Assembly (NCBI GenBank): GCA_964607415.1
Contig: CAZSKK010000002.1
Span: 288,585 to 352,584, forward strand
Length of the DNA: 64,000 bases
Reading direction: 5' to 3'
DNA from: an uncultured Candidatus Saccharibacteria bacterium
GTDB lineage: Bacteria > Patescibacteriota > Dojkabacteria > J137
Of this stretch, positions 23,687 through 24,366 are shown in pieces (the first letter of the stretch is position 1; the number at the start of each line of letters is the position of its first letter). Position numbers and translations under genes: made by a program. Below the pieces are notes generated by a model, which saw only the letters and a program-made list of their open reading frames with translations, ran no database searches and was not told the origin of the DNA.

Positions 23687-23757
23687 CTTCTCCTTTAGGA
23701 GAAGTCGATTGTGAACTTTGTTTCACAATCGGATGAGGTAATTTAAATTAAAGATAA
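23687..23757 (-). promoter_or_regulatory. structured 5' leader of rpsG (two hairpins plus conserved block), paralogous to the rpsL leader
   Basis: CTTCTCCTTTAGGAGAAG hairpin, GATTGTGAACTTTGTTTCACAATC hairpin, then GATGAGGTAATTTAAATTAAAGATAA; same order and spacing at 24297-24366; both carry the identical GAATAAAC(C)TTAATATATATG initiation region. Confidence 0.45.
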
Positions 23758-23831
23758 AGTTACTTGTTCAACACATCTCGAAAAAGCATTCTGCTTTTTC
23801 ACCCCTCTCTAGAGGAGAATATATTCTTCTA

Positions 23832-24272
23832 CTATGCCTTCTTTCTTCCGTACCTACTTCTTGCTTGTCTTCTTGCATCTACTGGTGCTGCATCGTAAAC
23901 ACCTCTTACAACTTGATATCTTACACCTGGTAGGTCTGGTCTTCTACCTGCTTTTACAAGAACAACAGAGTGCTCTTGAAGATTGTGTCCCTCTCCAGGA
24001 ATATATGCAGTAACAACTTGCTTGTTAGATAATCTTACTCTAGCAATTTTTCTTAAAGCAGAGTTTGGTTTTCTAGGCGTCATAGTTTTTACAGCAATAC
24101 ATACTCCTCTTTTATAAGGATTAGACTTCTTAAAGTATTTATTTTTTATTGGGTTATAGTTAAAGTGTAAAGCCTTGTACTTTGTACTTTCAGAAAATAG
24201 TAGACCTTTAAATCGTACAGTTTTCTTTTTTGGCTTTCTTCCCTTTCTTACTAATTGAGAAACTCTTGCCAT
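23832..24272 (-). CDS. rpsL: 30S ribosomal protein S12 (with ~20-aa N-terminal insertion)
   Basis: [28 protein letters not shown] and [10 protein letters not shown] motifs; 146 aa. Confidence 0.9.
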
Positions 24273-24296
24273 ATATATTAAGGTTTATTCCACCAG

Positions 24297-24366
24297 CCTC
24301 TCCTGAAGGAGAGGTCAATTCTGGCTTTGTCCAGAATTGGGTGAGGTAATTAAATTAAAGATAATT
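24297..24366 (-). promoter_or_regulatory. structured 5' leader of rpsL in the rpoC-rpsL spacer, paralogous to the rpsG leader
   Basis: CCTCTCCTGAAGGAGAGG hairpin, CAATTCTGGCTTTGTCCAGAATTG hairpin, GGTGAGGTAATTAAATTAAAGATAA block. Confidence 0.45.

Follow-up and report, generated by a model that had tools for sequence, protein, structure and literature searches.

A Whalefall-1-like element, probably a structural DNA repeat, occupies the rpoC-rpsL and rpsL-rpsG spacers of a Dojkabacteria genome and is not a dedicated ribosomal protein control element

In a genome assembled from an uncultured member of the Dojkabacteria (GenBank assembly GCA_964607415.1, contig CAZSKK010000002.1), the spacers that precede rpsL and rpsG in the rpoB-rpoC-rpsL-rpsG cluster carry the same structured module, and this raises the question of whether the module is a leader or promoter serving these genes or a repeat of another kind. 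The question was addressed in a 64-kb stretch of this one genome (contig positions 288,585 to 352,584, referred to as the window), which has a GC content of about 33 %, and all window counts refer to this stretch. Its RpsL homologues place the window in Candidatus Dojkabacteria (WS6; Patescibacteria/CPR, the candidate phyla radiation). The copies in the rpoC-rpsL and rpsL-rpsG spacers are referred to as A and B, respectively, and a third copy, located upstream of a gene encoding LOG/SLOG and methyltransferase parts (the LOG-methyltransferase gene), as C. The cassette is not a dedicated ribosomal protein control element. Judged by its sequence, it is assigned to the BoxC/PIT/TM intrastrand-triplex class, in the form known as Whalefall-1. 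A and B probably belong to a structural DNA repeat with a lineage-specific expansion, with one spacer copied across rpsL, the hairpins and base triads kept, and the copies passive in the transcript.

On the minus (mRNA-sense) strand, the parts of A and B follow each other in identical order. From the 5′ end, an A/T-tract hairpin is followed by a G-rich stretch, an AT-rich stretch and the conserved block TTATCTTTAATTTAA(A)TTACCTCAYCC, and then by a variable hairpin (9–10 bp), GAC, a CYTCTCC-N4-GGAGARG hairpin and GRTGRAATAAAC(C)TTAATATATATG, which extends up to the start codon. The initial annotation had described the same module in the same order in both spacers, and direct reading of the sequence bears this out. 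It had also described a duplicated leader of about 95 nt; the duplication stands, and the length is an underestimate, as the homology covers 142 aligned positions at 74 % identity (MAFFT) and adds the A/T-tract hairpin and the G-rich stretch. The predicted hairpins are real, in that they are kept by compensatory changes between A and B. Among the 25 base pairs common to the two minimum-energy folds, 18 are identical, six are compensatory, one has a one-sided change and none is broken, and all four helices common to A and B are kept, with two compensatory changes and one G-U/A-U change in the upstream A/T-tract hairpin. Folding z-scores of the elements range from -3.4 to -5.8. The pattern ATTTAAATTACCTCATCC, with up to three mismatches allowed, was found at three sites in the window, where 0.20 were expected, and none of 100 shuffles reached three.

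The cores of A and B lie on the plus strand. Both contain a pyrimidine stem, a loop within the range of 3–6 nt and a perfectly complementary purine stem, together with a further purine block, the mirror image of the purine stem in seven of seven triads. The pyrimidine stem, purine stem and putative third strand are CCTCTCC, GGAGAGG and GGTGAGG in A, and CTTCTCC, GGAGAAG and GATGAGG in B. The two copies are distinguished by a coordinated change at three positions (C:G·G vs T:A·A), and it follows from the stem and mirror sequences that the Y of the conserved block varies together with both strands of the GGAGARG hairpin. Helices and triads alike have been maintained between the copies. Over the unique elements from the window and from metagenomes, the combinations found were CG-G in 52, TA-A in 14 and mismatched in eight (Fisher p = 1.6e-8, kinship ignored). 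In elements with two differing units (L094 and L104), the arm matches the adjacent hairpin and not the opposite arm, and the stem variants GGGGAGG and GGGGGAG are each accompanied by their own mirror block.

The cores match the Rfam family RF01762 (Whalefall-1) at 24294-24348 (+) in A (32.9 bits) and at 23684-23740 (+) in B (32.5 bits), each with E about 1e-6 and with the model aligned end to end (positions 1-56 of 56). Both matches are antisense to rpsL and rpsG. A scan of A and B in Rfam gathering mode reported nothing, and RF01762 was seen in E-value mode. One seed member of the family, wf1_Contig538, has nearly the same sequence as the A and B cores. Whalefall-1 was described from 16 whale-fall sequences as two hairpins with a purine-rich tail and of unknown function (Weinberg et al. 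2010, PMC2864571). A and B share with it a CUCUCC-type hairpin, a variable hairpin and then the purine-rich GGGUGAGG, as well as the lack of a conserved downstream gene. In the Whalefall-1 seed, the tails mirror hairpin 1 at 6–7 of seven positions in all three subtypes, as read from the alignment. The second loop is CUUUGU or ACUUUGUU in A and B, and CUUG in Whalefall-1. Whereas Whalefall-1 has been described only from whale-fall metagenomes, as a small RNA, the cores in A and B are antisense to ribosomal protein leaders, are bounded by a complementary C-rich arm and have the look of a DNA-level repeat.

The earlier work on BoxC/PIT elements is reportedly that of Bachellier and colleagues in the 1990s and of Hoyne and Maher in 2000 and 2002. 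The likeness of A and B to BoxC/PIT/TM_ECO lies in the succession of a C-rich stem, a short loop, a G-rich stem and a mirroring G-rich block, and their stem and mirror words are nearly those of TM_ECO (CCCTCTCCC / GGGAGAGGG / GGGTGAGGG). The TM motif unit has been defined as CCCTCTCCC-loop-GGGAGAGGG-N3-GGGTGAGGG, with 3610 occurrences in 262 proteobacterial genomes, where it is intergenic and without strand or gene-class bias (Holder et al. 2015, PMC4666352). As single-stranded DNA it forms a triplex in vitro, shown for E. coli oligonucleotides, and it is associated with unstable intergenic regions (PMC4666352). Further shared properties are the multi-copy state, the lack of orientation preference and of any link to gene function, a copy number that varies sharply among relatives and the instability of the carrier intergenic regions. 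The layout of A, B and C, with a unit, a spacer and an inverted unit, is that of BoxC pairs such as the one in the E. coli hrpB-mrcB spacer, where two inverted units flank a spacer. In contrast to BoxC/PIT/TM_ECO, with stems of 9 nt and a loop of 3 nt, the window elements have stems of 7–8 nt and the second loop of A and B holds a 22–24-nt hairpin. The hosts also differ, namely a bacterium of the candidate phyla radiation (CPR) with 33 % GC vs Proteobacteria. The window element is partly in frame within genes, whereas in E. coli K-12 every TM_ECO copy is described as intergenic, and A, B and C have additional genome-specific AT-rich flanks that reach the start codon.

MAFFT could not sensibly align the variable hairpins, and the Rfam model and an explicit scan for perfect seven-triad motifs were used instead. 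The scan found ten such motifs at six sites in the window, namely A and B plus eight motif loci at four further sites, and none in 100 shuffles. In 118 kb of sequence from relatives and in 475 kb from unrelated genomes, one was found in each, and the scan recovered the E. coli hrpB-mrcB pair. The repeat has the architecture described above, has expanded in this lineage and has inserted into coding sequence. The single motif in the relatives (TCCCCCT / AGGGGGA / TGGGGGT, at about 5903-5930 of L131) lies in the rpoB-rpoC spacer, which is another spacer of the same operon.

The coordinates of all copies and their parts are listed in Table 1. The initial annotation had proposed a third copy 5′ of the LOG-methyltransferase gene; this copy is confirmed, and it is far more diverged than A and B (nhmmer E=0.018). 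C has in common with them the conserved block, the two hairpins and the ...ATAAA...TATATATG end. Its first part is a CCTCTCCC-TTT-GGGAGAGG-AGTAA-GGTGAGAGG unit followed by an AT spacer, and its second part comprises a ATCACCTCATCC arm, two hairpins and GATGTATAAA...TATATATG. We infer that C is older than A and B. The mechanically called ORF (open reading frame) of this gene begins at a GTG within C, and the most likely start is the ATG at 12020-12018, such that the N-terminal extension attributed to the element is explained for this third gene.

In the valS copy, 8-bp arms pair and perfect triplex motifs are found on both strands; the stems are 8 nt and the loop is TTG, which brings this copy nearer to TM_ECO. 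Most orthologues have no counterpart of it. A different insert, encoding VTSPRPH, occupies the same spot in the orthologue P0124, and this surface loop of ValRS carries different insertions among Dojkabacteria (P0124, P0127, P0122 and P0161), including a 200-residue domain in P0161, and looks like an insertion hot spot. The 37-aa insert in the ELP3-like gene is missing from an orthologue with 70 % identity. Clear terminal inverted repeats (CCTCACCC...GGGTGAGG) are seen in the valS copy and in many of the copies from metagenomes, whereas those of A, B and C are degenerate, with a 5-bp closing helix. The genes adjoining the window motifs are functionally unrelated and lie in either orientation. 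As with miniature inverted-repeat transposable elements and Rickettsia palindromic elements (RPEs), the element is present or absent at orthologous sites, including as in-frame insertions in genes.

Table 1. Copies of the repeat, their parts and the surrounding genes in the window
Feature	Position	Strand	Details
Copy A	24273..24415	-	Entire rpoC-rpsL spacer; composite repeat cassette; minimum free energy -44.8 kcal/mol, z -4.5
Copy B	23664..23831	-	Entire rpsL-rpsG spacer; composite repeat cassette; z -5.2
Core of A	24297..24346	+	CCTCTCC-TGAA-GGAGAGG, 25-nt hairpin-forming second loop, mirror third strand GGTGAGG
Core of B	23687..23738	+	CTTCTCC-TTTA-GGAGAAG, 27-nt hairpin loop, mirror third strand GATGAGG
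A, conserved block	24339..24364	-	AT-rich stretch and C-rich arm ACCTCACCC, complement of the third strand
B, conserved block	23731..23757	-	AT-rich stretch and C-rich arm ACCTCATCC
A, variable hairpin	24317..24338	-	Loop 2 of the motif; three compensatory pair changes vs B
B, variable hairpin	23707..23730	-	Loop 2 of the motif
A, GGAGARG hairpin	24297-24314	-	
B, GGAGARG hairpin	23687-23704	-	
A, upstream A-tract/T-tract hairpin	24386..24406	-	In the degenerate inverted second unit
B, upstream hairpins	23780..23817	-	CTCCTC-TAGA-GAGGGG hairpin and A/T-tract hairpin (degenerate second unit)
B, upstream A/T-tract hairpin alone	23780-23800	-	
A, degenerate purine arm	24270..24294	-	GGTGGAATAAA, then CCTTAATATAT and the rpsL ATG
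B, degenerate purine arm	23661..23683	-	GATGAATAAA, then CTTAATATAT and the rpsG ATG
Copy C	12018..12184	-	Composite; 5′ of the LOG-methyltransferase gene; nhmmer E=0.018
Compact element in valS	18967..19029	+	63 nt, in frame; peptide ...HLTPTLSSKERGNHAEGMVGEA...
Two tandem units in ELP3-like radical-SAM gene	59303..59402	-	In frame; 37-aa insert
Architecture variant, TrmB-RsmB/F spacer	8097..8170	unassigned	CCTCCCCTTT/AAAGGGGAGG hairpin, mirror GGAGGGGTTA
Variant between divergent genes	60039..60094	unassigned	CTCCCCC/GGGGGAG hairpin, mirror GAGGGGG, 13-nt enclosing arms
rpoB	28423-31866	-	
rpoC	24416-28351	-	
rpsL	23832-24272	-	441 bp
rpsG	23196-23663	-	

Related elements are found in metagenomes and in viral contigs, with GC contents from 0.36 to 0.71. 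A metagenome scan for the block together with the GGAGARG hairpin gave 37 loci (GC 0.36-0.68), most of them closed by a GGGGTGAGGT arm, which was no part of the search pattern, and a scan of viral contigs gave matches in at least 120. In-frame metagenome copies are located in GcvP, MnmA and a type IIG methylase. One metagenome match (L126) was a chance match in the conserved UvrA signature and was removed. Tandem arrays of at least three near-identical units are present in several metagenome and viral contigs (L117, 1667-1941; L097/L101; L175). One viral example of enterobacterial appearance gave no Megablast match to E. coli genomes.

Comparison with relatives bears directly on the shared leader or promoter role suggested in the initial annotation. 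Six Dojkabacteria loci with RpsL 83–90 % identical were obtained by protein search and contig look-ups. The order rpoB-rpoC-rpsL-rpsG is kept in all six, with rpoC-rpsL and rpsL-rpsG spacers of 100 and 62, 69 and 109, 18 and 24, 77 and 112, 14 and about 24, and 43 and 41 nt. The cassette is absent from these spacers of 14–112 nt, where hairpins are unrelated or lacking. Neither fusA nor tuf follows rpsG in the window genome or in the related Dojkabacteria. A scan of genome contigs with RpsL found no close relatives, only loci from other phyla with at most 65 % identity (best segment), and the contigs with an identical RpsL (L081-L086) are 100 % identical to the window and offer no micro-variation. 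The tie to gene starts does not hold either, since copies lie in frame in valS and the ELP3-like gene and others lie beside unrelated genes. The initial annotation had named in advance two outcomes that would speak against its proposal, namely hairpins not conserved in related genomes and copies distributed without regard to gene starts, and both were observed. These results speak against a dedicated role as a shared cis-regulatory RNA or promoter cassette and leave a co-opted RNA role, in processing, stability or the initiation context, as an unlikely alternative.

In A and B, the repeat unit consists of the pyrimidine stem CYTCTCC, a 4-nt loop, the purine stem GGAGARG, a hairpin loop of 22–24 nt and the purine block GRTGAGG. 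Because this block mirrors the purine stem, it can lie in the groove of the stem as a third strand (G·G:C, A/T·A:T), and the conserved block ACCTCAYCC is the complement of that strand. The purine-motif unit of A and B lies on the plus strand, antisense to rpsL and rpsG, with a degenerate inverted second unit upstream. If A and B are repeat copies, such an element would spread or be copied at the DNA level, for which hairpin- or triplex-promoted slippage, template switching and gene conversion are candidate routes, and one whole spacer would have been copied across the 441-bp rpsL. The copies would then be passively co-transcribed in the rpoBC-rpsLG message, and any effect on the mRNA, as an exonuclease block, as a processing site or by insulation of an AU-rich initiation region lacking a Shine-Dalgarno sequence, would be a secondary one, with no specificity for ribosomal proteins.

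Several observations weigh against this interpretation. The A, B and C composites all face the same way and end 10–13 nt before an ATG. The unpaired AT-rich blocks of A and B are near-identical (about 45 of 47 nt), in contrast to the stems, which have diverged through compensatory substitutions. Neither the placement nor the near-identity is expected of a DNA repeat that is purely structural or selfish. The sense RNA folds somewhat better than the antisense RNA in A (-44.8 vs -38.7 kcal/mol) and in C (-40.2 vs -34.4 kcal/mol), and the few G-T pairs of A fall on the sense strand. For Whalefall-1, both A and B score below the RF01762 gathering score of 37, and Rfam gave no match for C or for the valS copy. 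Relative to TM_ECO, the stems of A and B are 7 nt instead of 9 and the second loop is 25–27 nt instead of 3, and A and B do not fit the TM_ECO pattern proper; they are therefore a variant of it and not TM_ECO itself. Even in E. coli, the triplex has not been seen in vivo (PMC4666352). No target-site duplication was visible by eye, and no mobilizing enzyme was identified, no search for a transposase having been made. Even the closest relatives are only distantly related, with ValRS identities of at most 66 %, and the census of this genome covers 64 kb.

The same-sense placement before the ATG, the near-identical unpaired blocks and the better sense folding are the reasons why a functional 5′ leader RNA, derived from a co-opted repeat and cis-acting for rpsL, rpsG and the LOG-methyltransferase gene, is retained here as an unlikely alternative with some claim to attention. 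Its sense fold would be a three-way junction (a short closing helix, the variable hairpin and the GGAGARG hairpin) followed by an unstructured AU-rich stretch, in which the C-rich arm has two alternative pairing partners, the G-rich stretch upstream and the purine arm downstream, and it would function in processing, in stability or in insulating the initiation region. Start codons in the window lie in an AU-rich context and most genes have no Shine-Dalgarno sequence, so leader structure could matter. However, the orthologous spacers of the six relatives, some only 14–24 nt long, do without it, and the motif also lies in coding sequences and beside unrelated genes, in both orientations. It is not restricted to ribosomal protein operons, as C and the copies in valS and the ELP3-like gene show, and in the 21 complete elements of the family neither strand is favoured in folding. 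A triplex on the opposite strand accounts for the three-way mirror covariation, which the sense RNA fold does not, and no Rfam ribosomal protein leader or other leader family matched A or B. Sequestration of a Shine-Dalgarno sequence was considered and dropped, with at least 24 nt to the ATG and most genes lacking the sequence, as was a hammerhead or other ribozyme, for which there were no core motifs and no Rfam match.

A promoter unit that equips each of rpsL, rpsG and the third gene with a separate promoter and with a 5′ end capped by a hairpin, with the AT-rich block TTATCTTTAATTTAAAT as a -10-like element and a start near ACCTCAYCC, appears very unlikely. In A, B and C alike, a conserved AT-rich block directly precedes the structured part, TTGAAC lies upstream of this block in B, and a consensus scan may overlook promoters of CPR bacteria, which are poorly known. 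Against this, no sigma-70-like promoter (-35/-10 with a spacing of 16–18 nt) was found on the sense strand of either spacer, where promoter-like matches fell only within the end of rpoC or within rpsL, and the putative -35 is not common to A, B and C. The gaps of 14–24 nt between rpoC, rpsL and rpsG in relatives imply co-transcription and so also argue against a promoter, and PIT/TM elements in E. coli are stated to have neither promoter nor terminator activity (Hoyne & Maher 2002, in the account given in PMC4666352). That the plus-strand cores are Whalefall-1 small RNA genes, antisense to the rpsL and rpsG leaders and regulating them by base pairing, is barely credible. The Rfam matches are on the plus strand, and the motif was rated as certainly an RNA on the basis of covariation and a tetraloop (Weinberg et al. 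2010, PMC2864571). But neither strand of the motif folds better than the other, the mirroring of hairpin 1 by the purine tail, seen in all three seed subtypes, is a DNA-triplex signature, and purine-motif triplexes do not form in RNA, as the work of Semerad & Maher (1994) is summarized in PMC4666352. Copies are also in frame in coding sequence, no plus-strand terminator follows the cores, and the sole promoter-like match on the plus strand overlaps the motif itself.

The preferred reading, of A and B as copies of a DNA repeat, can also be set beside other known elements. In the str operon of E. coli, the S7 translational operator lies in the rpsL-rpsG spacer, and A and B likewise place structured RNA between rpsL and rpsG. 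Unlike the S7 operator and the Rfam leaders, the cassette is not conserved in relatives, and it is duplicated before rpsL and before a non-ribosomal gene. RPEs, and the GC clusters or double-hairpin elements of mitochondria, are short hairpin-forming palindromic repeats of small AT-rich genomes, and both are intergenic and also tolerated in frame in housekeeping genes. The window element resembles them in spacer occupancy and in-frame insertions, with no sequence relationship. To our knowledge, RPEs are confined to one genus and we know of no mirror-repeat third strand in them, whereas the window motif spans GC contents of 0.36-0.71. REP/BIME elements of enterobacteria are mosaic intergenic hairpin repeats that occur in operons and can stabilize upstream mRNA segments. 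The window element has no GTAG or CGTC head and no RAYT transposase was seen, a search for transposases not having been made, and its arm mirrors the stem, while that of REP/BIME merely complements it. A REPIN-type doublet was rejected as the halves are not mutually complementary, and an integron attC site as TAAC is not conserved. No relevant literature was found on the arm sequences or on in-frame palindromic elements. An exact E. coli Chi octamer (GCTGGTGG) is present at the degenerated purine arm of A (24288-24295, minus strand) and is probably a coincidence.

Additional features of the window were recorded. A T-box leader-like element is located 5′ of valS at 16533-16722 (+), with a score of 43.6 bits vs a gathering score of 93 (E = 3e-7), and the conserved T-box sequence AGGGUGGUAACGCC aligns. 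Between it and valS there is an ORF of 113 aa with a TTG start (16757-17098). Stuttering short repeats of the AGCTGATAGC / GCTAATAGCTAAAT type are found at 18491-18526, 19562-19597, 16237-16272, 28352-28422 and 57658-58074, both in intergenic spacers and in frame in valS (peptides ENGELIADSQ and ADSAQPTADS), and represent another type of repeat that coding sequence tolerates. A degenerate tandem word of the AAAGTTGAAAAGTTT type is intergenic at 7080-7132, 10605-10635, 15667-15699, 18060-18102 and 33037-33106. Two copies of the 38-nt repeat TAAATTCGAAATCGTAAATCCGAAATTCTAAA, 89 % identical, lie 5′ of the ORF at 13753-15459 (15497-15534) and in the long spacer 5′ of rpoB (32094-32131). A very large ORF of 1960 aa is present at 36729-42611 (-).

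Recognition of the cassette as a repeat removes a tempting wrong annotation, that of a new ribosomal protein leader or attenuator in a CPR genome, and accounts for spurious N-terminal extensions and for the unusual low-complexity insertions, peptides of the PLS..GEG type, that valS and the ELP3-like gene encode. It joins the Rfam Whalefall-1 and BoxC/PIT/TM literatures, between which we found no mutual citation, and extends the repeat class to Patescibacteria, coding sequences and viral contigs. The link between Whalefall-1 and BoxC/TM, the CPR host, the in-frame copies and the three-way covariation may be new. More tentatively, and in our estimation with the odds against it, Whalefall-1 itself may be a long-loop BoxC/PIT/TM triplex DNA repeat and not a small RNA. 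If so, the triplex class would be active far beyond the Proteobacteria and would have colonized a minimal CPR genome, in frame in essential genes and as a cassette copied directly before rpsL and rpsG. The coordinated changes of both stems and the third strand would then mean selection on a triple-helical fold, which might act, for example, as replication or transcription punctuation or as a recombination-promoting structure. Should the covariation survive phylogenetic control, it would be unusual comparative evidence for selection on triplexes in vivo.

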